Shown: in pieces, positions 1,166 through 13,450 of the stretch | Position numbering within the stretch: the stretch's first letter is position 1 | How the letters are laid out: each line of letters begins with the position of its first letter | Source of the DNA: a virus | Virus genome (UHGV): UHGV-0194287 | Strand: one strand, 5' to 3' | DNA length: 13,450 bases | Program-made: the position numbers and the translations under genes | Notes under the pieces: generated by a model | Databases searched by the model: none | Told to the model about the DNA's origin: nothing | The model's input: the letters and a program-made list of their open reading frames with translations, nothing else

Positions 1166-1292
1166 AATGTCATAGGGAGTCGCGACTCCGTTGCGTATCC
1201 TTTTTTGTCTCCTCACCGTCTGGTCGGTGTCCTGCTGAGACTTATAACTTCCTGTTTTTGTTGGTGTAGTCCTTACACCGTCCAATCATGAT

Positions 1293-1337
1293 TGGTGGGC
1301 TGGCGGGAGTTGAACCCGCGTCCGAAATTCCTACATA
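1293..1337 (-). repeat. About 45-nt copy of the ssrA (tmRNA) 3' end, a prophage attachment-site repeat (attL/attR type), not a complete tmRNA gene
   Basis: Minus strand reads ATGTAGGAATTTCGGACGCGGGTTCAACTCCCGCCAGCCCACCA, i.e. T-loop GGTTCAACTCC, acceptor 3' strand and CCA end of tmRNA. Sequence 5' of it (plus 1338 onward) is AT-rich and unrelated to tmRNA. Confidence 0.75.
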
Positions 1338-1450: not shown

Positions 1451-2686
1451 TTACGTGTGCAGTGTATGTTCGATTTTTTGATGTTTGAATAACCGATCAA
1501 CCAATAATTCAAGTTTGTGAAAATCTGTAAGAGGATATAGCTTCACGATGTCTTCCTCAAAATTCGCTATACCTGATAATTTTTCTTTTTTTCGTAAGTA
1601 ATCGATGGCAATTCTTTGTTCATTCGATATCTCAAACTGATTTTGATAATCTAAGGTTTTAAGTACTTGCCAAGACATAGGGGCTGTAAATTCGAAGTAA
1701 GAAGCTAGTTTTGGACAAAAATCATATTGAATAGATTGCTTATAGGTTGCTTTAGGTGGTAATACAACATTAACAGAATATTTACTGCTCCTAGAATTCG
1801 GCATTTTTGTAGAGTAATATGCTATCCCCGCTATTGGTGATTTAACCCGACGACCGATCCACTGCATTAATAAATTTGGGATTATATATTCAGGTGTGAA
1901 TGATGAATTTTCTACGCGTTTTAAATAATTGCAAGCGATTAGTAATGGCCAGAATATCAAGTATGATGCTTTTGTTCTGTTTTCATCATATATTTTATTT
2001 TCATCAACAGTTTTTTTAATTGGAAGTGAAAGGTGAGGAGAAGCAAAATTTAAAATTGTTGAATTTACATCGTTTGTAACGAAGGATGATATATATAATT
2101 TATCAAAATCTGGCTTTCCCATCTCTTGCCAACATACGTACAAGGATGTACCGAGATATAAGCAGGGTTGGCCTGCGACTGAATATCTTTGAGCATTCAC
2201 TAAATGTCTTTTTGAAAACGGAATATGAAATATTTGGTTGTGCTCAATCAAAGGGGTTTCTGATTTTCTGACCCGATAAAGTGGCTTTTCCTTATTGCAA
2301 AAATCTTTTAGCAAGATACTAATTCGATTTAGTTGGGCTATTGTTGCCTCCTTTGACATAATGTCATCGAAAATGTCATATGCTTTTTTAATATCTCCAG
2401 ACAAAAACTCCTCTAGAGTTTTTTGTATGCACTTATGAATATTTGCAACTCGTCCTTTTAGAACTCTAAGTTCCCTACCGCATCCATTCATGTCTGCTTT
2501 TATTGATTCATCAATTAAAGTCATATAAATTTTACATCGATTAGAAAAATCACTGGCTATATCGCCTTTAATGTTGAATGGTGGATTTAATTCTTCATGG
2601 CTCAATAGTCGCTCAAGAAAGTGATCAATCCAGAGTGCATTTTTCTTTTCTGATTCTAATTGAGTACTGGATTTTTTTTCGTCCAT
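1451..2686 (-). CDS. RES-domain protein (411 aa), putative NAD+-targeting toxin/effector with N- and C-terminal extensions; prophage cargo gene
   Basis: Complete ORF; start 4 nt after the integrase stop. Motifs typical of the RES domain: LYRVRKSE, QRYSVAGQPCLYLGTSLYVCWQE (R...G.P.LYLG.S......E) and GIAYYSTKMPNSRSSKYSVNVVL (GI.Y.S....S...N.VL). Markedly AT-rich compared with neighbouring genes. Confidence 0.6.
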   Translation of the reverse strand: MDEKKSSTQLESEKKNALWIDHFLERLLSHEELNPPFNIKGDIASDFSNRCKIYMTLIDESIKADMNGCGRELRVLKGRVANIHKCIQKTLEEFLSGDIKKAYDIFDDIMSKEATIAQLNRISILLKDFCNKEKPLYRVRKSETPLIEHNQIFHIPFSKRHLVNAQRYSVAGQPCLYLGTSLYVCWQEMGKPDFDKLYISSFVTNDVNSTILNFASPHLSLPIKKTVDENKIYDENRTKASYLIFWPLLIACNYLKRVENSSFTPEYIIPNLLMQWIGRRVKSPIAGIAYYSTKMPNSRSSKYSVNVVLPPKATYKQSIQYDFCPKLASYFEFTAPMSWQVLKTLDYQNQFEISNEQRIAIDYLRKKEKLSGIANFEEDIVKLYPLTDFHKLELLVDRLFKHQKIEHTLHT

Positions 2687-2690
2687 GTTT

Positions 2691-3707
2691 TCACTCTATA
2701 TAGTTTAAAGGATTTTTAGTTACCGCATCCTCCAGATGATCTGGAGAAAAGTGCGCATAAATCATGGTCATTTTTATATCGGCATGGCCTAAAATTTCTT
2801 TAAGCACAAGTATGTTTCCTCCGTTCATCATAAAATGGCTGGCGAATGTATGACGTAATACATGGGTGCATTGACCCTCAGGAAGCTCAATATCGGCCCG
2901 CTTTACTGCACGCTCAAAGGCTTTTCTGCATGGTGAGAATAACTTCCCTCGATTTTTAGGAAGTTCGTTGTACAGATCCTGAGATATTGGCACGGTACGG
3001 TTTTTCTTGCCCTTCGTCTTGGTATAAGTGATGCGGTATTTGGATAATTGATGGCCCTGCAGATTTTCTGCTTCACTCCACCGTGCGCCAGTAGCTAGGC
3101 ATATTTTTGCAATCATTAGTAAGCTAGGGCTTTGAGATTCAGCACATGCCGCCAACAGGCGCTTGATTTCGTCCGTGGAAAGAAAAGCCAGCTCACCTTC
3201 GGCAATTTTGAAGGTCGGAAGTCCTGCCAGCGGGTTTGGTGCTGACCAGTGTCCTAGTTTTTTTAATGTACCGAACACCGATGATAGATTGCGCTGTTCA
3301 AGGTTTACCGTGCGGGGCTTAACGGGCGACATAAGCGTGCCATCTTCATTTCGTATTTCACCTTTTAACCGTGCTTCGCGGTATTTCGTAAAGTCTCCGG
3401 CTGTCAGTTCTGAGGCGATGGGGTCGCCTAGGCCATTACAGATAATTCTAAGTTTCGCCATGAGGCGCTTGGGGTCTGCGAGTGTCTGACCATACAGGGA
3501 ATACCAAAGCTCAATTAATTCTGATAGGCGTCGCCGATCATCCTTTTCACCCAACCACGGTTTTTTATTCACTTCTTCCATTGTGAAGCTTTCAAACGCA
3601 ATGGCTTCGCCTTTCGTGGCAAATTGCTTACGCACGCGCTTGCCATTGCGTCCATTGGGATAGCACTCGCACAACCATTTTCCGTTCGGCTGTTTTCTGA
3701 TGGTCAT
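2691..3707 (-). CDS. Phage integrase, tyrosine site-specific recombinase (338 aa)
   Basis: C-terminal catalytic region HVLRHTFASHFMMNGGNILVLKEILGHADIKMTMIYAHF (R, H-x-x-R and Y motifs). Start is 1 nt after the CI stop. Located next to the att repeat. Confidence 0.95.
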   Translation of the reverse strand: MTIRKQPNGKWLCECYPNGRNGKRVRKQFATKGEAIAFESFTMEEVNKKPWLGEKDDRRRLSELIELWYSLYGQTLADPKRLMAKLRIICNGLGDPIASELTAGDFTKYREARLKGEIRNEDGTLMSPVKPRTVNLEQRNLSSVFGTLKKLGHWSAPNPLAGLPTFKIAEGELAFLSTDEIKRLLAACAESQSPSLLMIAKICLATGARWSEAENLQGHQLSKYRITYTKTKGKKNRTVPISQDLYNELPKNRGKLFSPCRKAFERAVKRADIELPEGQCTHVLRHTFASHFMMNGGNILVLKEILGHADIKMTMIYAHFSPDHLEDAVTKNPLNYIE

Positions 3708-3708
3708 A

Positions 3709-4341
3709 TCAAAGGCTCTTAATGATTTTCAGTGCGCGGCCTACTACCTCAATGTCATCCAGACCGCACTCAAACGATGAATCATCCTGATGCACTACTA
3801 ATTTGTTTCCCGGGAGTCGTGTCAATTTAACAATGCTTTTTATCCCGTCGATGTCCACTAACCACATACCATTTACTGGTGGTGTTTGGTTGCGATCTAT
3901 TAAATAAGAATCACCAGAAGTAGTCACCAGCAGCAGGTTGCTTGAATCTGAGGGGAGTATGCTGCTATCAATGATTGCTTTTCCCGCATCGATCAATAAA
4001 CCACCGTTGAGAGTCGCCTTGTCAATTTCAGGAGATACTAGTTCAGAAAGAGGTACAACCTTGCTGGAGTTCACGGAATTGATATTTTTTTTAGGTTCAA
4101 TGTTTGGACCTGGCTCCCCCTGTCCGGTGGTTAGCCACAGTAAAGAAACTCCTGTTTCCAAGGCGCACTGAATCACCCACTCTGCAGGAAAACTATCTCT
4201 TAAGTATCTGTTTGCCATGGTGCTTTTTGATGCGCCTAAGTGATCGCAAAGTTGCTGTCTGGACTTGAAATCATAGGCTGCCATTAGTCTATGGATAGCC
4301 TCTCTTCCCCCTGTATTCTCTCCAACCTTTACCTGTATCAT
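3709..4341 (-). CDS. CI-like immunity repressor, N-terminal HTH plus C-terminal LexA/S24 peptidase-like domain (210 aa)
   Basis: N-terminal HTH-like region (QQLCDHLGASKSTMANRYL). C-terminal GDSYLID ... IVKLTRL ... IEVVGRALKII resembles the S24 Ser/Lys dyad region. Divergent from the rightward early operon, translationally coupled to int. Confidence 0.85.
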   Translation of the reverse strand: MIQVKVGENTGGREAIHRLMAAYDFKSRQQLCDHLGASKSTMANRYLRDSFPAEWVIQCALETGVSLLWLTTGQGEPGPNIEPKKNINSVNSSKVVPLSELVSPEIDKATLNGGLLIDAGKAIIDSSILPSDSSNLLLVTTSGDSYLIDRNQTPPVNGMWLVDIDGIKSIVKLTRLPGNKLVVHQDDSSFECGLDDIEVVGRALKIIKSL

Positions 4342-4460: not shown

Positions 4461-4703
4461 ATGAGCACTGATATTTCAATTCGTGTACCAAAAGAGATGG
4501 CTACGCCTGCAGAGTTCGCGGAATGGGAAGGTATCTCCCGCGGCTCTGTGTATCAAAAAATTCACCATGGTCAGCTTGCTAAATACATGGTCAAGAAAGA
4601 AAAAAACAAAGGCCGCGTAAGCCTGCGTTATTTAATGTACAAAACCGATCAGGTCCGTGAATCCCTCGGTCATTCCAACTTCCGCGTCATTGTTGGTAAG
4701 TAA
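4461..4703 (+). CDS. Cox/Apl-like HTH excisionase-regulator (80 aa)
   Basis: First gene of the rightward operon opposite CI. Segment PAEFAEWEGISRGSVYQKIHHGQL resembles the HTH region of P2 Cox (YQEFAKLIGKSTGAVRRMIDKGKL) as I recall it. GGGAG RBS upstream. Confidence 0.6.
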   Translation: MSTDISIRVPKEMATPAEFAEWEGISRGSVYQKIHHGQLAKYMVKKEKNKGRVSLRYLMYKTDQVRESLGHSNFRVIVGK

Positions 4704-4735: not shown

Positions 4736-5245
4736 ATGTTTGATTATAAGATTTCCAAACACCCGCATTTTGATGAAGCCTGTAGAGCTTTTGCACTTCG
4801 TCACAATATGGCGAAGCTGGCAGAACGTGCAGGAATGAATGTCCAGACTCTGCGAAACAAACTCAACCCAGATCAACCGCATCAGCTCAATGCGCCAGAT
4901 ATCTGGCTACTTACCGATCTGACGGAAGATTCAACGCTGGTAGACGGTTTTCTGGCACAGATTCACTGCCTGCCATGTGTACCGATTAATGAGGTGGCAA
5001 AAGAGAAACTGCCACATTACGTCATGAGTGCAACCGCAGAGATCGGGCGTGTTGCTGCAGGTGCGGTATCTGGCGATGTAAAAACCAGTGCAGGTCGTCG
5101 TGATGCTATCAGCAGCATTAACTCTGTTACACGACTGATGGCGTTAGCTGCTGTTTCATTGCAGGCCCGTTTACAGGTTAATCCTGCGATGGCAAGTGCA
5201 GTTGATACTGTAACTGGCCTCGGTGCTTCATTCGGTTTGCTGTGA
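4736..5245 (+). CDS. CII-like phage regulatory protein (169 aa)
   Basis: Position directly after the Cox/Apl-like gene; length matches phage 186 CII as I recall it; strong RBS AAGGGGG. Family assignment by position and size, not by alignment. Confidence 0.55.
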   Translation: MFDYKISKHPHFDEACRAFALRHNMAKLAERAGMNVQTLRNKLNPDQPHQLNAPDIWLLTDLTEDSTLVDGFLAQIHCLPCVPINEVAKEKLPHYVMSATAEIGRVAAGAVSGDVKTSAGRRDAISSINSVTRLMALAAVSLQARLQVNPAMASAVDTVTGLGASFGLL

Positions 5246-6059: not shown

Positions 6060-6286
6060 TGGCTGATGCAATGGATCTCGTACAGCAGCGCGTTGAAGAA
6101 GAACGCCAGCGCCATATCCGTGCTGCCCGTGCCAAAACACCGGGCGTGTCTCGCGTGCTTTGCATTGAGTGTGAAGCGCCAATTCCGCCAGCACGCCGCC
6201 GTGCCATTCCGGGTGTGCAGCTTTGCATTACCTGCCAGGAAATTGCAGAGCTGAAAGGCAAACATTACAACGGAGGTGCTGTATGA
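6059..6286 (+). CDS. TraR/DksA-family C4 zinc-finger protein (75 aa)
   Basis: CIECEAPIP...(19 aa)...CITCQE gives a CxxC-N-CxxC zinc finger of the TraR/DksA type; GCAGGAG RBS; translationally coupled on both sides. Confidence 0.75.
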   Translation: MADAMDLVQQRVEEERQRHIRAARAKTPGVSRVLCIECEAPIPPARRRAIPGVQLCITCQEIAELKGKHYNGGAV

Positions 6287-7137
6287 GCACCATCCTGAAA
6301 TGGGCGGGAAATAAAACCGCCATTATGTCCGAACTGAAAAAACACCTTCCTGCTGGCCCGCGACTGGTTGAACCTTTCGCGGGTTCCTGTGCAGTGATGA
6401 TGGAGACGGATTACCCCAGCTATCTGGTTGCGGATATTAATCCTGATTTAATCAACCTCTATAAAAAGGTTGCCGCTGATTGTGAATCGTTTATATCTCG
6501 CGCCAGAGTTTTATTTGAGAACGCAAACAGGGAGATGGATTATTACAACATAAGGCAGGAGTTTAATTACTCAACTGAAATTACTGATTTCATGAAAGCG
6601 GTATATTTCCTGTATCTCAATCGTCACGGTTACCGTGGTTTATGCCGCTATAACAAGAGCGGGCATTTCAACATTCCCTACGGTAATTATAAAAATCCGT
6701 ATTTCCCTGAAAAAGAAATTCGCGCATTTGCAGAAAAAGCCCAGCGGGCAACGTTTATCTGCGCCAGCTTTGATGAAACGCTGGCGATGTTGAAAGCGGG
6801 GGATGTGGTGTATTGCGATCCGCCGTATGACGGTACGTTTTCCGGCTATCACACTGATGGTTTCACTGAAGATGACCAGTATCACCTGGCATCCGTTCTT
6901 GAACATCGAGCATCTGAAGGACATCCGGTCATTGTTTCTAACAGTGACACGTCTTTGACCCGGTCTCTTTATCGTAATTTCACTCACCACTACATCAGGG
7001 CGAAACGCAGCATCGGCGTTGCAGCGGGGGAGGGAAAATTTGCAACAGAGATGATTGCCACTAAATCTGCTAATTGGTTTAGTGCCGATTTTAGTAGGGG
7101 ACGTGACTCTACTGTTATTTTCGGGGTGCAAGTGTGA
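6283..7137 (+). CDS. dam: DNA adenine methyltransferase, Dam (D12 class) family
   Basis: Start ATG overlaps the upstream stop (ATGA) with GGAGGTG RBS. N-terminal [32 protein letters not shown] and catalytic DPPY (6817-6828) align with E. coli Dam. The track's longer ORF (from 6223) begins inside the upstream gene. Confidence 0.9.
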
Positions 7138-7964
7138 AAGAAATGCACCACGGAATTCATCATTTCCATGGGACGCCTGTCTGGGGAAGTGCTGGCGACG
7201 TTCATCGTATTGCGGTGAGCGGAGCTGGTGCTTTCGTCTCCTATGTACGACCAGATCAGATTGCGGCGTCCATTCAGCACGCTCAGGTCGTCGGCATTGA
7301 TAACGGCGCATTTTCTGCATGGGTGCGTGGGCTAAAAATTAACTGGAGTGATTTTTATAAATGGCTCCTGAACTATTACCACCATCCTAAGGTCGCTTTT
7401 TTTGTCATTCCTGATGTTGTGGACGGAGGTGAACGTGACAATGATGCCCTGATAAACGAAGTTCCGAAAATGTTCTACGGGAAGGCAACTCCCGTCTGGC
7501 ATCTGCACGAGTCAATCGATCGGCTTATCGAGCTATGTCGTGAATGGCCTCGTGTCTGCTTTGGATCGTCTGGTGAATATGCGGCTATTAGAACTGCGCA
7601 CTGGCATCGTCGTATGCAGGACGCTTTTGAAGCAATTTATTGCCGACACAATTTCAAAACAGCTGTTCATGGTTTGCGCATGCTTGACGGTCGTGTGTTG
7701 GGAAATTACCCACTGGCGACTGCCGACAGTACAAATCTTGCCTGCAATGTCCCCAAATTTAATAGCAAATATCCTGAGCTTACGCGGGCTATTCAGGAGG
7801 CTGAGTATTCGCGCAATCTGACGGAAAAGGAGCTGAAAGCTGTCATTCTGAAAAACCGTTGCGCAATTTTAAAAGGTGCAATTGAAGCTGTTCGCCCACC
7901 TTCAGTTTCTGACTGGCTGTCGAATGGTTTGCAGCCTTCACAGCTCGAACTGGAGATTGCGTAA
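7134..7964 (+). CDS. Hypothetical protein (276 aa) translationally coupled to Dam; function unknown
   Basis: GTG 7134 overlaps the Dam stop (alternative ATG at 7143); its stop overlaps the gpA-like start (TAATG). Contains a D-N-G-A-F segment ([12 protein letters not shown]) and glycine-rich stretches; no motif I can assign with confidence. Confidence 0.65.
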
Positions 7965-10336
7965 TGAACTACAGCTATTCCTGGAATGCTGAGAAAAAAG
8001 CAATCAATCCTTACGTAGAGACAGAAGAGCAATCTTCAGTTTCTGCGCTTTCAAACCTGATCACTCTGTACGCTGTCGATAACGAGCAGGAACAACTGCG
8101 TCGCGAGGCACTGAGTGATCAGGTCTGGGAGCGTTATTTCTTTAATGAATCCCGTGATCCTGTCCAACGCGAAATGGAGCAGGATAAGCTCATTAGTCGG
8201 GCAAAGCTGGCGCATGAGCAGCAGCGTTTTAATCCGGATATGGTCATTCTGGCGGACGTCAACGCCCAGCCTTCCCATATCAGCAAGCCGCTGATGCAAC
8301 GTATTGAATACTTCAGCAGCCTGGGCAGGCCAAAGGCTTATTCCCGCTATTTGCGTGAGACGATTAAGCCATGTCTGGAACGGCTGGAGCATGTACGCGA
8401 CAGTCAGCTATCCACTTCTTTTCGCTTTATTGCGAGCCATGAAGGGCTGGACGGCCTGCTGATCCTGCCTGAAATGAGTCAGGATCAGGTGAAACGCCTG
8501 TCCACCCTGGTAGCTGCGCATATGAGCATGTGCCTTGATGCCGCTTGTGGTGATTTGTACGCCACCGATGATGTTAAGCCAGAAGAAATCCGCAAGACAT
8601 GGGAAAAGGTGGCAGCGGAAACCCTGCGTCTGGATGTCATCCCGCCTGCGTTTGAGCAACTCCGCCGGAAAAGAAACCGCCGTAAACCCGTGCCCTATGA
8701 ACTCATTCCGGGTTCGCTGGCGCGTATGTTGTGCGCTGACTGGTGGTACCGGAAATTATGGAAGATGCGTTGCGAATGGCGGGAAGAGCAGTTGCGTGCT
8801 GTCTGCCTTGTCAGCAAAAAAGCATCTCCCTATGTCAGCTATGAAGCCGTGATGCATAAACGTGAGCAGCGCCGTAAGTCGCTGGAGTTTTTCCGTTCTC
8901 ATGAACTGGTGAACGAAGACGGCGACACGCTGGACATGGAGGATGTGGTAAACGCCAGCAGCAGCAACCCTGCGCATCGCCGCAATGAGATGATGGCCTG
9001 TGTTAAAGGTCTGGAGCTTATCGCGGAAATGCGTGGCGACTGCGCCGTTTTCTACACCATCACCTGTCCGTCACGTTTCCATTCCACGCTAAATAACGGC
9101 AGGCCCAACCCGACCTGGACAAATGCGACGGTAAGACAAAGCAGTGATTATCTGGTCGGCATGTTTGCTGCATTTCGTAAGGCGATGCACAAAGCCGGAT
9201 TGCGCTGGTATGGCGTGCGGGTGGCTGAGCCGCATCATGACGGCACAGTTCACTGGCACCTGTTGTGTTTTATGCGCAAAAAAGACCGCCGCGCCATTAC
9301 TGCTTTGTTGCGTAAGTTTGCCATTCGTGAAGACTGCGAGGAGCTGGGTAATAACACGGGGCCACGCTTTAAGTCTGAGCTGATAAACCCGCGCAAAGGA
9401 ACGCCGACAAGCTACATCGCGAAATATATCAGCAAGAACATTGACGGGCGTGGTCTGGCTGGCGAGATCAGCAAGGAAACGGGTAAATCTCTGCGTGATA
9501 ACGCTGAATACGTGAATGCCTGGGCGTCTTTGCATCGTGTTCAGCAATTCCGCTTCTTTGGTATTCCGGGACGTCAGGCTTACCGTGAACTTCGCTTGCT
9601 GGCTGGTCAGGCGGCAAGGCAACAGGGTGACAAAAAAGCAGGTGCGCCGGTACTGGATAACCCGCGTCTTGATGCCATTCTGGCTGCTGCTGATGCTGGT
9701 TGTTTTGCCACCTACATCATGAAGCAGGGCGGCGTACTGGTTCCCCGTAAATATCACCTCATCAGAACCGCTTATGAAATCAACGAAGAGCCGACCGCCT
9801 ATGGCGATCACGGTATTCGTATTTATGGCATCTGGTCACCCATTGCAGAGGGCAAGATCTGCACTCATGCAGTGAAGTGGAAAATGGTTCGTAAAGCCGT
9901 TGACGTTCAGGAGGCGGCAGCCGACCAGGGCGCTTGCGCCCCTTGGACTCGTGGCAATAACTGTCCCTTTGCTGAAAATTTGAACCAACAGGAGAAAGAT
10001 AAATCAGCTGATGGGGACCCCAGAACGGACATTACCAGCATGGATGACAAGGAGTTGCACGATTACCTGCACAGTATGAGCAAAAAAGAGCGCCGGGAAC
10101 TGGCAGCAAGGTTACGCCTGGTGAAACCGAAACGGCGTAAAGACTACAAACAGCGAATTACAGACCATCAGCGACTGCAGCTCGTGTATGAGCTGAAGTC
10201 CAGAGGATTTGATGGCAGCGAGAAAGAGGTCGATTTACTCCTTCGCGGAGGCAGTATTCCGTCAGGAGCAGGCCTGCGTATCTTCTATCGGAACCAGCGT
10301 TTGCAGGAAGATGATCAGTGGCGGAACCTGTATTAA
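7964..10336 (+). CDS. Rolling-circle replication initiator endonuclease, P2 gpA family (790 aa)
   Basis: HUH motif in [10 protein letters not shown] (~9244-9270) and paired active-site tyrosines YIAKYISK (~9411-9434), as in P2 gpA and phiX174 A. Size close to P2 gpA. Confidence 0.9.
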
Positions 10337-11082: not shown

Positions 11083-11126
11083 CGTAGATCATGCAGGTGC
11101 ATGAAAACCACTACATAAAGCGGGCA

Positions 11127-11145
11127 GGCGTGGCGGGGATACGAG
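11127..11145. other. cos-like sequence (candidate P2/186-type cohesive end site)
   Basis: GGCGTGGCGGGGATACGAG: the first 13 nt match the cohesive-end sequence of phage 186 as I remember it (GGCGTGGCGGGGAAAGCAT); the last 6 diverge. Lies between the replication/SOS module and the portal remnant, as expected for cos. Confidence 0.35.
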
Positions 11146-11158
11146 CGCGCGCTCATGG

Positions 11159-11187
11159 TTGAATTAATGAAATTATGGTGTTAAATA
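11159..11187 (+). promoter_or_regulatory. Candidate sigma70 promoter for the cargo gene
   Basis: TTGAAT, 17-nt spacer, TAAATA, about 70 nt upstream of a strong RBS (AGGGAGGAG) and the ATG at 11256. Confidence 0.35.
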
Positions 11188-11255
11188 GGCTAGCTTTTTA
11201 AGTCGTGAATATTCAATTTTTCAACTCATTTTTTTCATAGGGAGGAGTAATTGAC

Positions 11256-11954
11256 ATGGTTATGTTAGTGGATGACTGTCCACGATGTGGATCACAAAAA
11301 ATAGCGTTTGATGTTAATGGGCTGAATTGCACTAGGGTTTACAATGCATTGGGCGGGGGTAAAACATACGAGTACGAGGTCTATTGTGTTTGCCGAGAGT
11401 GTCATAAAACGACAATGTTTCTTTGCAGACCTTTAACGAAAAATAAAAATTTAGATGGCTATAATTGGGAAAGTGGAATATTCGGCTTAAAGGAAGTTGC
11501 AGAGGTTGTTAGGCCTATATCACCGGCAGACTTAGCAGTAGAGGAGCCACCAGAGTTCTTACCTGAGCATATCAATAGTGCATATGAGGAAGGGGCGAAA
11601 TGTTTGGCTATAGGTTGTTATAATGCAGCAGCAACCATGTTTAGGCTTTGCCTTGATTATGCCACAAAAGGACTTCTTCCTGATGGGGAGCAAGGGCCTG
11701 CGCAAAAAATAAGGAGAAGCCTAGGGTTAAGAATGGAGTGGTTATTTGATAATCATCTACTGCCTGAAGCTTTAAGGGAACTAGCTGAATGCGTTAAAGA
11801 TGACGGAAATGATGGAGCGCATGAAGGTATTTTGGATAAAGCTGCTGCTGAGGATCTTGAAGATTTTACCTATCTTTTTTTAGAACGGCTTTACACTGAA
11901 CCTCAACGCCTTATCGAAGCCAAGACAAGGCGTGAACAAAGAAGAAACAAATAA
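11256..11954 (+). CDS. Zinc-ribbon + DUF4145 (HEPN-like) protein (232 aa); candidate single-gene defence cargo
   Basis: N-terminal CPRCG...CVCRECH zinc ribbon. C-terminal region with AATMFRLCLDYA ... VKDDGNDGAHEG ... FLERLY fits the DUF4145 pattern (GN..AH core). Strong RBS; lower GC than the flanking phage genes. Confidence 0.6.
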   Translation: MVMLVDDCPRCGSQKIAFDVNGLNCTRVYNALGGGKTYEYEVYCVCRECHKTTMFLCRPLTKNKNLDGYNWESGIFGLKEVAEVVRPISPADLAVEEPPEFLPEHINSAYEEGAKCLAIGCYNAAATMFRLCLDYATKGLLPDGEQGPAQKIRRSLGLRMEWLFDNHLLPEALRELAECVKDDGNDGAHEGILDKAAAEDLEDFTYLFLERLYTEPQRLIEAKTRREQRRNK

Positions 11955-11962
11955 GTTCGGAA

Positions 11963-12600
11963 TTATTCTTCTGAAAGAATATAGGGCGTAAATTTAATCA
12001 CTTCTTCGCCCAGCCAGTCGTTCAGCTCTTGTAGCCTTTTTTGCAAGGGCGTTAATTCATTACGTACAAATACGCGACTGGCCTTCTCCACATCCCCAAA
12101 CCCTCCAACATTATTAGGCATAATCCCCATCATTTGCGGCGGCACGCGGTGCGCAGCCATCATGTCGTCGCGGCTGACATTTTTGATATTCAAAAACTCA
12201 TCCTTCGCCGCGACTTCTGACAATGGGATGATCTGAAGCCCGTCTTTTTTGCCGTTAGGCGAGTACATAAACAGGTTGCGGAAGTTGCCTGGACCTTTGG
12301 CGCTTTTCATCGCATTGCGGAGGTTGTTCACATCCTCCTGGTTTTGCGCGGCATCGGTCATGTACATGATAAAGCCCGCATGACTGCCGTTAATGTAATA
12401 CTTGCGACGGAACAGCGTGGCGGACTCGTTGAGCAGGGCTGACGGAATGGCAGAAAGATAACCGGGCAGGCCGTAGATCTCCTGATTAATATCCGGTTCC
12501 ATCAGATGAAAAATGCTGCCTTTCGTGAACTGATACGGCTGGGTTGTCATACCGTATTGCACAAACCAGTAGGTAACGGTTTTACGACCAGTATTGAACT
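11963..12600 (-). pseudogene. Truncated portal (gpQ-like) remnant, C-terminal ~200 aa only; N-terminal boundary approximate
   Basis: Minus-strand ORF, convergent with the cargo gene, in the position and orientation of P2 Q next to cos. Its first ~50-60 codons run through the ogr promoter and start region and look non-coding. A P2 portal is about 340 aa and no terminase or capsid genes follow. Confidence 0.45.
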
Positions 12601-12702
12601 TGAAGTGAAAATTGGTGATCTTGAAATGGAATAAATGGTTCTCAATATTGATATTTTGTGTATCATTGCAATGATTCTGATAGCAAAGGTAGGGATCTGG
12701 AT

Positions 12703-12921
12703 ATGATGAATTGTCCAAAGTGTGGTCATGCGGCGCACACAAGGAGCAGTTTTCAAGTAACAGAAAGCACCAAAGAGCGTTACTGCCAGTGCCAAAATAT
12801 TAACTGCGGGAGCACTTTTGTTACCCATGAAACAGTGGTCCGGTTTATTGTGACACCTGCAGTGATTGCCACAGCCCCTCCACATCCATTGCCAGGTGGT
12901 CAGGGCCATATGAATTTTTAA
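12703..12921 (+). CDS. ogr: Ogr/Delta-family zinc-finger late-gene transcription activator (72 aa)
   Basis: MMNCPKCGHAAHTRSSFQVTESTKERYCQCQNINCGSTF parallels P2 Ogr (CPLCQHAAHARTS...TKERYHQCQNVNCSATF); identical length to P2 Ogr; AGGGA RBS. The track ORF starts 45 nt upstream; the internal ATG is preferred. Confidence 0.85.
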   Translation: MMNCPKCGHAAHTRSSFQVTESTKERYCQCQNINCGSTFVTHETVVRFIVTPAVIATAPPHPLPGGQGHMNF

Positions 12922-12928
12922 GAAAGAG

Positions 12929-12951
12929 AACCTGCTACGGCAGGTTTTTAT
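12929..12951. terminator. Bidirectional rho-independent terminator between ogr and the convergent gene
   Basis: AACCTGC-TACG-GCAGGTT hairpin followed by TTTTTATT on the plus strand and a T-rich tract on the minus strand. Confidence 0.55.
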
Positions 12952-13430
12952 TCATCTGGGATCTCACCCGTTTCAAGAAAATGTATAAAGCCAGGCTCAT
13001 CTATGATGATAGTGCCTTTCATCCTGGCTGCCGATACTTTTGATGGGCCTGCATTGTAACCGCAACAGAGCATCTGAAGGTTTTGGGTTACAGATGTTCT
13101 TACCGTTAATCCTTGTTCATTCGCCTTATCAACCAACCTTTCTTTATCTGCTTTCTTAAATCCGGTGAAACACACATCGAATGTATTTTTTTTCGGACCT
13201 GACTGCTTAGTGAGATGTGAGTAGTTTTCGGGGAGGAATGACGCGCATTCCTGAATGGCTTGTTCTTGTGAATCGTATTGTTTAAGAATGCGGTCTTTTC
13301 GGAAGGTTTTTATTCGATCGGTGTTCTTACAAATGCCCTGTATGTGATTTTCGCTATAACTGATGCTCTGTATTGAGTGAACACCGATACGACCATTTGC
13401 ATTGATGTAAACAAAGTGAAGTTCTTCCAT
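12948..13430 (-). CDS. Small WYL-like + BRCT-like two-domain protein (160 aa)
   Basis: N-terminus LHFVYINANGRIGVHSIQ...DRIKTFRKDRI resembles the WYL-domain core (Y...R...P... R.FR.DRI). C-terminus FDVCFTGF...RTSVTQNLQMLCCGYNAGPSKVSAARMKGTIIIDEPGF follows the BRCT pattern of NAD-ligase type (F.x.TG......SVSKKT..LV.G...GSK..KA...GI.II.E..F). Confidence 0.6.
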   Translation of the reverse strand: MEELHFVYINANGRIGVHSIQSISYSENHIQGICKNTDRIKTFRKDRILKQYDSQEQAIQECASFLPENYSHLTKQSGPKKNTFDVCFTGFKKADKERLVDKANEQGLTVRTSVTQNLQMLCCGYNAGPSKVSAARMKGTIIIDEPGFIHFLETGEIPDE

Positions 13431-13450
13431 GTCAAACCTCTTTGCATGAT

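Follow-up and report, generated by a model that had tools for sequence, protein, structure and literature searches.

Defective or cryptic P2-like prophages of E. coli include the ogrK/yegZ remnant of K-12, and they resemble the element described here in having lost late genes while keeping ogr and accessory genes. A 2026 survey of such prophages found that they often keep defence genes near-identical to those of intact phages, saw no obvious pattern in which core components are lost and left the question of domestication open (PMC13586616). The nearest intact relative of the present element is Cartapus (Elveevirus cartapus, Peduoviridae; NC_070909.1), an ssrA-integrated P2/186-like prophage of E. 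coli LF82 that has been reported as an active phage (PMC9928086). Satellite P4 offers a further comparison, as it is of similar size, has int, cos, an activator of the Ogr/Delta family and a replication protein of its own, as does the present element, and in both the structural proteins would come from a P2-type helper. The P4 genome measures 11.6 kb.

The window, by which is meant the whole stretch of DNA analysed (13,450 nucleotides of UHGV virus genome UHGV-0194287), holds an Elveevirus (P2/186-like, Cartapus-type) prophage remnant of about 12.3 kb at the 3' end of ssrA in E. coli. Its attachment site and gene order are those of Cartapus. In the stretch between cos and portal codon 142, and again from the 3' end of gene D up to the window's right-hand limit, the two sequences are 99.8-99.9% identical; in the early region they are collinear at 85-95%. 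The window differs from Cartapus in lacking Cartapus 1482-22440, in an extra 276-aa gene between dam and gpA, in a different cargo gene next to int and in the absence of two small genes before cos. Unlike P4, it encodes neither Sid nor Psu and neither an alpha primase nor a P4 immunity system, judging by its ORFs and Pfam matches; for replication and immunity it has the helper family's own modules, and it arose by deletion rather than as a separate lineage. Unlike other defective P2-like prophages, the window copy is young, otherwise complete and the product of one step, and its breakpoint is, to the exact nucleotide, that of independent remnants, a pattern not reported in the survey (PMC13586616).

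Taken alone, the window deletion is a member of a well-known kind, the defective P2-like prophage, and a single case of this sort is an ordinary recent prophage-inactivating deletion; it is the recurrence that would matter. No description of a recurrent portal breakpoint was found in the literature searched, and as far as that literature goes it is a new observation that the same portal nucleotide is used recurrently and with specificity for TA.

Boundaries and gene content of the remnant

The features of the element are collected in Table 1. The att sequence at its left boundary is repeated (45/46 bp) at the end of the tmRNA gene on the opposite side of the element, 103-148 bp past the right end of the window, as read from an identical longer contig (L002); from these two copies of the ssrA 3' end follows the element size of about 12.3 kb. 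The leftmost 1.3 kb of the window, left of attL, is the host glaH region. The layout is that of P2 and 186, with cos followed by a leftward portal gene and with ogr at the far end adjoining the att repeat. According to Pfam and to collinearity with Cartapus, the early module of P2/186 type is complete (integrase, repressor, cox/apl and gpA with its internal ori), and the cox/apl-like and cII-like products have the same lengths as those in contigs L002-L004. A homologue of the ori nick site lies inside gpA near 9975-10010, where GCGCCCCTTGGACTCGTGGCAATAAC can be aligned to the nick site annotated for P2. The full set of head, tail and lysis genes that a functional phage has is missing; the element is a defective derivative, and the remnant is unable to make particles or to lyse the cell. 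The D-ogr spacer, in the neighbourhood of which sigma-70-like matches occur at 12621-12675, downstream of the junction, probably acts as a promoter.

Several accessory genes deserve mention. The 276-aa gene stands in place of a 196-bp Cartapus segment and has the appearance of a moron insertion; the 5' end of gpA is altered there (790 versus 804 aa). At the site of the 411-aa ORF, Cartapus has a gene annotated as a putative RES protein, with 70% DNA identity over 220 bp. The position between cos and portal is a known hotspot for defence genes (PMC9122126); the DUF4145 gene found there, which converges with the portal stop codon at a distance of 8 bp, has a weak PADLOC match to PD-T7-4 (E 1e-6) and is a candidate defence gene. 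The 160-aa ORF has a PADLOC match to PDC-S48 (E 1.7e-7); it and the 411-aa ORF flank the two att sites.

Table 1. Features of the prophage remnant, in window positions.
Feature	Position	Strand	Evidence or remark
attL core	1292-1336		45-bp copy of the ssrA 3' end; left boundary of the remnant
411-aa cargo ORF adjoining int	1451-2686	-	no match in Pfam or PADLOC
Integrase (tyrosine recombinase), 338 aa, intact	2691-3707	-	Pfam Int_N and Phage_integrase
186-type CI repressor, 210 aa, intact	3709-4341	-	Pfam Phage_CI_repr and Phage_CI_C
cox/apl-like excisionase	4461-4703	+	collinear with Cartapus gp36/gp37 region
cII-like activator	4736-5245	+	collinear with Cartapus gp36/gp37 region
Dam-type methylase	6283-7137		ORF list and Pfam scan
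276-aa gene between dam and gpA	7134-7964	+	no match in Pfam or PADLOC
Replication endonuclease gpA, 790 aa	7964-10336	+	Pfam Phage_GPA, E 3e-127
cos region	11095-11153		Cartapus 1-59, annotated putative cos site homologous to P2 cos
DUF4145 cargo gene in cos-portal defence hotspot	11256-11954	+	Pfam DUF4145
Portal gene stub, codons 142-344 and stop codon (59% of the protein)	11963-12575	-	99.8% identical to Cartapus 869-1481; partial Pfam Phage_portal
Deletion junction, TA common to both parents	12574-12575		alignment of window, Cartapus 1481 and Cartapus 22440
Late gene D (tail protein) remnant, last 59 bp, pseudogene	12576-12634	+	Cartapus 22441-22499, end of gp30 (gpD homologue)
D-ogr spacer, 68 bp, whole	12635-12702	+	identical to Cartapus; promoter-like hexamers
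ogr/186-B-type late activator, 72 aa, intact	12703-12921	+	Pfam Ogr_Delta, E 9e-21
160-aa ORF, last gene before attR	12948-13430	-	Cartapus gp32; BRCT-like C-terminus in Pfam, below cut-off

The deletion junction and the portal stub

The sequence-only reading of this DNA took a minus-strand ORF next to ogr for the C-terminal part of a portal-like protein, and this identification was borne out. The ORF at 11963-12742 is real in the ORF list (259 aa, TTG start); it aligns to portal residues 142-344 and to Pfam Phage_portal, where ORF residues 62-245 match profile positions 100-277 of 321 and the first 100 or so positions are missing. The homologous part is portal, as opposed to a full-length alignment with some other protein, and comprises the C-terminal 203 residues only. 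The first 56 codons are non-portal, being the antisense of the 3' end of gene D, the D-ogr spacer and the start of ogr. The 259-aa ORF is thus a read-through artefact of the fusion, and the portal stub is a pseudogene.

Alignment to Cartapus places the breakpoint between codons D141 and T142 of the 344 portal codons, where portal homology stops at window position 12575, equal to Cartapus 1481 (BLAST against NC_070909.1). A megablast of window 11900-13000 against phage records likewise returned Cartapus over the first 676 query bases at 99.9% identity, stopping exactly at 12575. In a whole-window BLAST, 11095-12575 corresponds to Cartapus 1-1481 (99.8%) and 12574-13450 to Cartapus 22439-23315 (99.9%), which maps the endpoints of the deletion to Cartapus 1481 and 22440. 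Missing relative to Cartapus are 20,959 bp (1482-22440) that contain the N-terminal part of portal, the terminase, capsid, lysis and tail genes, the invertase and most of gene D. The right flank begins at Cartapus 22439/22441 and retains 59-61 bp of gene D together with the complete 68-bp spacer, so that 127 bp separate the junction from the ogr ATG downstream of it. The earlier picture of a truncated portal gene joined directly to the ogr promoter therefore needs amendment: the ORF does run into the start of ogr, but the join itself is to the 3' end of gene D. The separation of portal and ogr, put at about 20 kb from P2, corresponds to a 21-kb gap in the nearest intact relative.

Microhomology, for which the junction was to be searched, is present, but it amounts merely to the 2-bp overlap TA, and no repeat is found at the join. 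In the three-way alignment, in which a slash marks the break, the left parent in Cartapus reads ...CCAGTAGGTA/TCCAGG, the right parent ...CCCGGATA/ACGGTTTT and the window ...CCAGTAGGTAACGGTTTT. There is one junction, the flanks are collinear with an intact phage and 99.8-99.9% identical to it and the other genes are full-length, as a single deletion event would have it. Thus the whole late block, morphogenetic and lysis genes alike, was lost in one clean deletion, as the sequence-only reading had proposed, and the regulation, replication and cargo genes were kept, as was cos.

The TA at portal codons 141/142 was joined to the TA 59 bp before the end of gene D, and one recent non-homologous deletion of about 21 kb left a 12.3-kb defective element. 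A single recent deletion of this size, with a preferred breakpoint in portal and TA-to-TA joining, is very probably the right explanation overall. The junction, its parents, and the size, recency and recurrence of the deletion form the demonstrated part of this explanation; beyond it, one site-preferring process of breakage and joining would make such deletions, and these would persist because the prophage has been disarmed.

Carriers and age of the deletion

The possibility that the contig falsely fuses two parts of an intact prophage is so improbable as to be negligible. Repeats can collapse in short-read assemblies, yet nothing specific to this locus favours such an artefact, the join is without a repeat and has only 2 bp in common, and the same junction occurs inside long contigs in a 54x SPAdes metagenome-style assembly and in Logan assemblies of other runs. 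Over 11,488 bp that include the junction, the window agrees at every position with two contigs, L002 (ENA ERZ651956, 111 kb) and L004 (Logan SRR8086038). Past ogr and the 160-aa ORF, immediately beyond the window, L002 continues into attR, ssrA, smpB and housekeeping genes. Because independent identical contigs run into these host genes, the junction is no assembly artefact, and structural genes of the same element do not lie beyond the window.

The product expected from the first internal ATG of the stub (195 aa) is recorded on four contigs. Every carrier of the junction that was found is 100% identical to the window. The junction is absent from all 5,426 complete RefSeq E. coli genomes: a 401-bp query with the junction at its midpoint finds both of its halves in approximately 1,200 of them, never side by side. 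The exact junction also had no match among GTDB species representatives and in IMG/VR. Since the junction is absent from the genomes searched and the flanks are nearly identical to a phage reported active, the deletion is very young and specific to one clone.

Recurrence of the portal breakpoint

Cartapus 1481 is the starting point of at least eight independent deletions, the window included, which involve at least six portal alleles and seven right-hand ends. In L003 position 1481 is joined via TA to 7048, the lysis and tail genes are kept and the 195-aa product is the same as that of the window. Four IMG/VR contigs join 1481 to 15182 in the invertase gene (L005), to 20001 in the tape measure gene (L006), to 22097 in gene D (L009) and to 23253 at the 5' end of the 160-aa ORF, with removal of ogr (L008). 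The remaining two cases lead from 1481 to a tail-fibre cassette, alongside a second deletion that joins 15583 to 20001 (L014), and from 1481 to 20001 (L027). The four IMG/VR contigs came from a scan for the 19 bases that precede the break with anything other than the normal T after them, which also returned one plain SNP and four chance matches in metagenomes; L014 and L027 were reached by way of truncated portal proteins in a collection of 5.8 billion proteins.

The stubs of the window, L003 and L014 are one allele, identical to an intact portal, and the other 1481 stubs differ by 5-10% from each other. No lineage's stub is closer to the stub of another lineage than it is to an intact portal. 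Most of the 1481 events come from searches conditioned on a portal stub, so that their number says nothing about frequency relative to other breakpoints, which within portal are found at 1374, 1404, 1518, about 1530, 1545, 1570 and 1684. IMG/VR holds at least 120 contigs with an intact 1481 site as against the four with a junction. All events are deletions in the same orientation, and two IMG/VR scans found no leftward or inverted events at 1481. A count of left against right halves of the portal region in E. coli genomes carried no information, because the sensitivity of megablast is unequal between the two short queries.

Some remnants were considered as further 1481 events and rejected. L015/L016 (P0100) have a frameshifted portal instead of a junction. 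L018-L021 and L160-L164 belong to an older remnant with a breakpoint near 1530. In L017 (P0083) the start of portal homology is 3 bp away from the counterpart of the hot site, and there is no intact reference for mapping; positions 1-300 of this contig show a more distant P2-like remnant with SIR2 and ATPase cargo that directly abuts a tRNA gene and its terminator.

The TA signature of the junctions

The dinucleotide TA stands exactly at the join in all seven readable partners of 1481, that is, in seven of the eight events. The partner junctions read GGATA/A, GAATA/C, TGATA/G, TGTTA/G (twice), CGATA/C and GCATA/C; L014 was left out of this count, as no intact version of its tail-fibre cassette was found from which the TA could be traced to the partner. 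No dinucleotide is rarer in the region than TA (3.5%), and the chance of meeting it was 3.4% per partner by simulation.

For a less biased set, 15 further junctions were read in five partial prophages of complete E. coli genomes and in 120 IMG/VR contigs chosen for an intact 1481 site. Here TA was common to both sides in 4/15 (null 0.45%, p 5e-7) and present at the right-hand site in 10/15 (null 12.4%, p 1.4e-6), and one third of the junctions (5/15) were without TA. When used TA sites are compared with 779 background TA sites, G is found at -2 in 18 of 26 (p 2e-5), and C at -4 and G at +4 are also enriched, so that the used sites form a weak palindrome, C-N-G-N-TA-N-C-N-G.

These figures bear on whether ordinary, one-off illegitimate recombination with chance 2-bp microhomology might account for the junctions, the shared breakpoint being then a coincidence or a result of common descent. 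A 2-bp overlap is expected in about 16% of random single junctions, and the less biased set includes CA, AA, GA, CTT and CAGTG junctions, as one-off events would produce. This explanation is nevertheless very unlikely, as it has to accommodate eight events at a single nucleotide with seven right-hand ends and stubs 5-10% apart, and a dinucleotide that makes up 3.5% of the region at every readable partner. Common descent meets the further obstacle that homologous recombination cannot swap the right flank of an inherited junction while the left remains exact. The left breakpoint is not random but a preferred site, at which related prophages repeatedly lose the late region by TA-to-TA joining.

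Selective retention and satellite-like life

According to the sequence-only reading, the survival of regulation, replication and cargo genes suggested domestication rather than random decay, the host having selectively kept these genes while purging the morphogenetic block. The remaining genes are indeed all intact, the cargo gene sits in a known defence hotspot, the same side with cos, cargo and stub is kept in many independent remnants, and the surveyed defective P2-like prophages carry defence genes nearly identical to those of intact phages (PMC13586616). Domestication of the window copy is nonetheless unlikely, and this part of the earlier reading did not hold up. The junction is private to one clone (0/5,426 complete genomes), and the flanks, at about 0.1-0.2% from a functional phage, are too young for decay to have separated selected from unselected genes. 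Nor is there a constant retained set among remnants with the same breakpoint: L003 still has tail and lysis genes, and L008 has lost ogr. A domesticated remnant would be marked by vertical persistence over a long time and by purifying selection on what is retained, whereas the carriers here are clonal and their divergence is too low for selection to be measured. Intact remaining genes are what is expected after any recent deletion; given the near-identity of the flanks to a live phage, the intact neighbours are therefore uninformative on selection. The window copy cannot settle the domestication question raised by the survey (PMC13586616), and the exact recurrence of the breakpoint points to a mechanistic bias in the site of deletion rather than to selection on this copy.

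A satellite-like life of the remnant is possible, because it keeps predicted modules for excision, replication, late activation and cos packaging. With int, cox, gpA, ori, ogr and cos all intact and a size close to that of P4, the 12.3-kb remnant could be a functional helper-dependent mini-phage of P4-like logic, which would excise, replicate, switch on the late genes of a helper and be packaged via cos by a co-resident P2-like phage. That it actually works in this way is improbable: neither the ORF list nor Pfam reveals a capsid-size determinant (Sid), Psu or a primase, remnants from the same breakpoint range in size from about 12 to 28 kb, and the element was found at one chromosomal site and in one clone only.

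Candidate mechanisms

Deletions at rolling-circle pseudo-origins, at invertase quasi-sites, by type II topoisomerases and those promoted by IS elements all resemble the present ones in having one or more fixed endpoints, many partners, short or no homology and deletions as the only outcome. Each of them differs in its particulars. The nick site of gpA, GCGCC(C)CTYG/GA...CAATAAC (taken for P2 from the annotation of NC_001895, the window homologue then being located), is unlike the junction sites, far from them and within gpA itself, and its core CCTYG/GA is unrelated to the junctions; deletion by gpA at pseudo-origins was rejected. Quasi-sites of the tail-fibre invertase were likewise rejected, as the TT at the centre of the Cartapus sites (TTCTCGCATACC-TT-GGTTTGGGAGAA and its partner) and their half-site geometry do not agree with the junctions. 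For a serine invertase of the Gin/Cin/Pin type, the junction TA at 1481 lies outside the half-site register and the partners are without half-sites. Foreign DNA at the join was found in 0/14 distinct stub-based junctions and in 0/15 junctions of the less biased set, and these contain no IS, in contrast to IS-promoted deletion or IS excision; insertion of an IS followed by its loss may be a route.

Resection by RecBCD limited by Chi was also set aside. The 33-kb Cartapus genome is without Chi on either strand, where about one copy is expected by chance over both strands, and this absence is probably not meaningful. Hairpins or cruciforms at the hot sites are not indicated, as single-stranded DNA from these sites folds no better than shuffled sequences (z -0.5 to +0.6). 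The C at -4 that is typical of Topo I is enriched (13/26), which is far from a strict rule.

Type IIA topoisomerases have the determinants -4G, -2A and -1T (PMC10117906), and the criterion applied was -4G, -2A, -1T, a 4-bp spacing, then +5A, +6T and +8C, with products offset by 4 bp. Many right-hand sites read G-N-A-T/A and are like the gyrase/Topo IV motif in the left half alone; the enriched G lies at -3 instead of -4, and the right half departs from the motif. The determinants thus match only the left half of some sites (PMC10117906), and no product pairs offset by 4 bp were seen among the junctions.

The data fit an activity that would break and rejoin DNA at TA in a 2-bp register, by analogy with serine recombinases and transposases of the Tc1/IS630 type. 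Also compatible with the data are processed topoisomerase breaks and template switching from a stalled 3' end at a fixed position. In a sample that is biased, the portal and terminase genes, which are transcribed leftward, hold most of the left breakpoints. Replication probably proceeds rightward from ori, judging by the annotated nick on the sense strand of gpA; if so, forks would meet portal and terminase transcription head-on.

A bolder proposal can be put forward, tentatively, as rather doubtful. It holds that there are preferred TA-centred break-and-join sites, of which portal codons 141/142 would be the strongest, and that a dedicated activity with a 2-bp TA crossover, encoded by phage or host, repeatedly excises the late region. 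The products, made in one step from lethal prophages, would be harmless, cos-bearing elements that can still replicate and carry their defence genes, some of them, such as the 12.3-kb copy in the window, P4-sized and perhaps mobilised by helpers, and this could be an origin of satellites and of 'domesticated' defence islands.

If late-gene loss does prefer a few TA sites, the grounding of prophages would be partly mechanistic as opposed to a matter of random decay and selection, and the rate at which lysogens escape killing would become predictable and open to manipulation. The conserved architecture of cos, cargo and portal stub in many defence-carrying remnants would then have a simple origin, and a route from helper phages to satellite-like elements could be tested. 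It would also suggest that Enterobacteria or their phages have a recombination or nuclease activity, as yet uncharacterised, that is specific for TA.

Further endpoints and remnants

Position 1570 may be a second hot site. It has three partners in one lineage that carries GmrSD, and three protein clusters (P0006, P0029 and P0049) start at Y112; the evidence for it thus consists of one prophage lineage and three protein clusters, and an IMG/VR scan at this site returned SNP variants of intact portals only. In the GmrSD lineage (L022-L027) the GmrSD gene adjoins portal, and the 195-aa stub has a different right neighbour in each of six unrelated sequencing runs, with breakpoints at 1481, 1545 and 1570. 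Its three breaks at Cartapus 1570 (CCAGGTA/) lead to 21473, 16615 and 19851, all at TA.

Other endpoints recur, with different partners, in independent prophages. Position 20001 is joined to 15583 in L014 and to 1481 in L006 and L027; 22097 is joined to 15191 in L039 and to 1481 in L009; 23251-23253 is reached from 19157 in L146 (23251) and from 1481 in L008 (23253); and 3360/3361 is an endpoint in both L035 and L135. Some of these recurrences at right-hand sites could be sequential deletions that re-use the GGTA microhomology of an earlier junction.

In complete E. coli genomes, the P2-like prophages L035-L039 occupy a second chromosomal site beside ybjL and show up to three internal deletions per copy. 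Their joins include terminase to gene D and portal to tape measure, and ogr and the cargo genes are retained in every copy.
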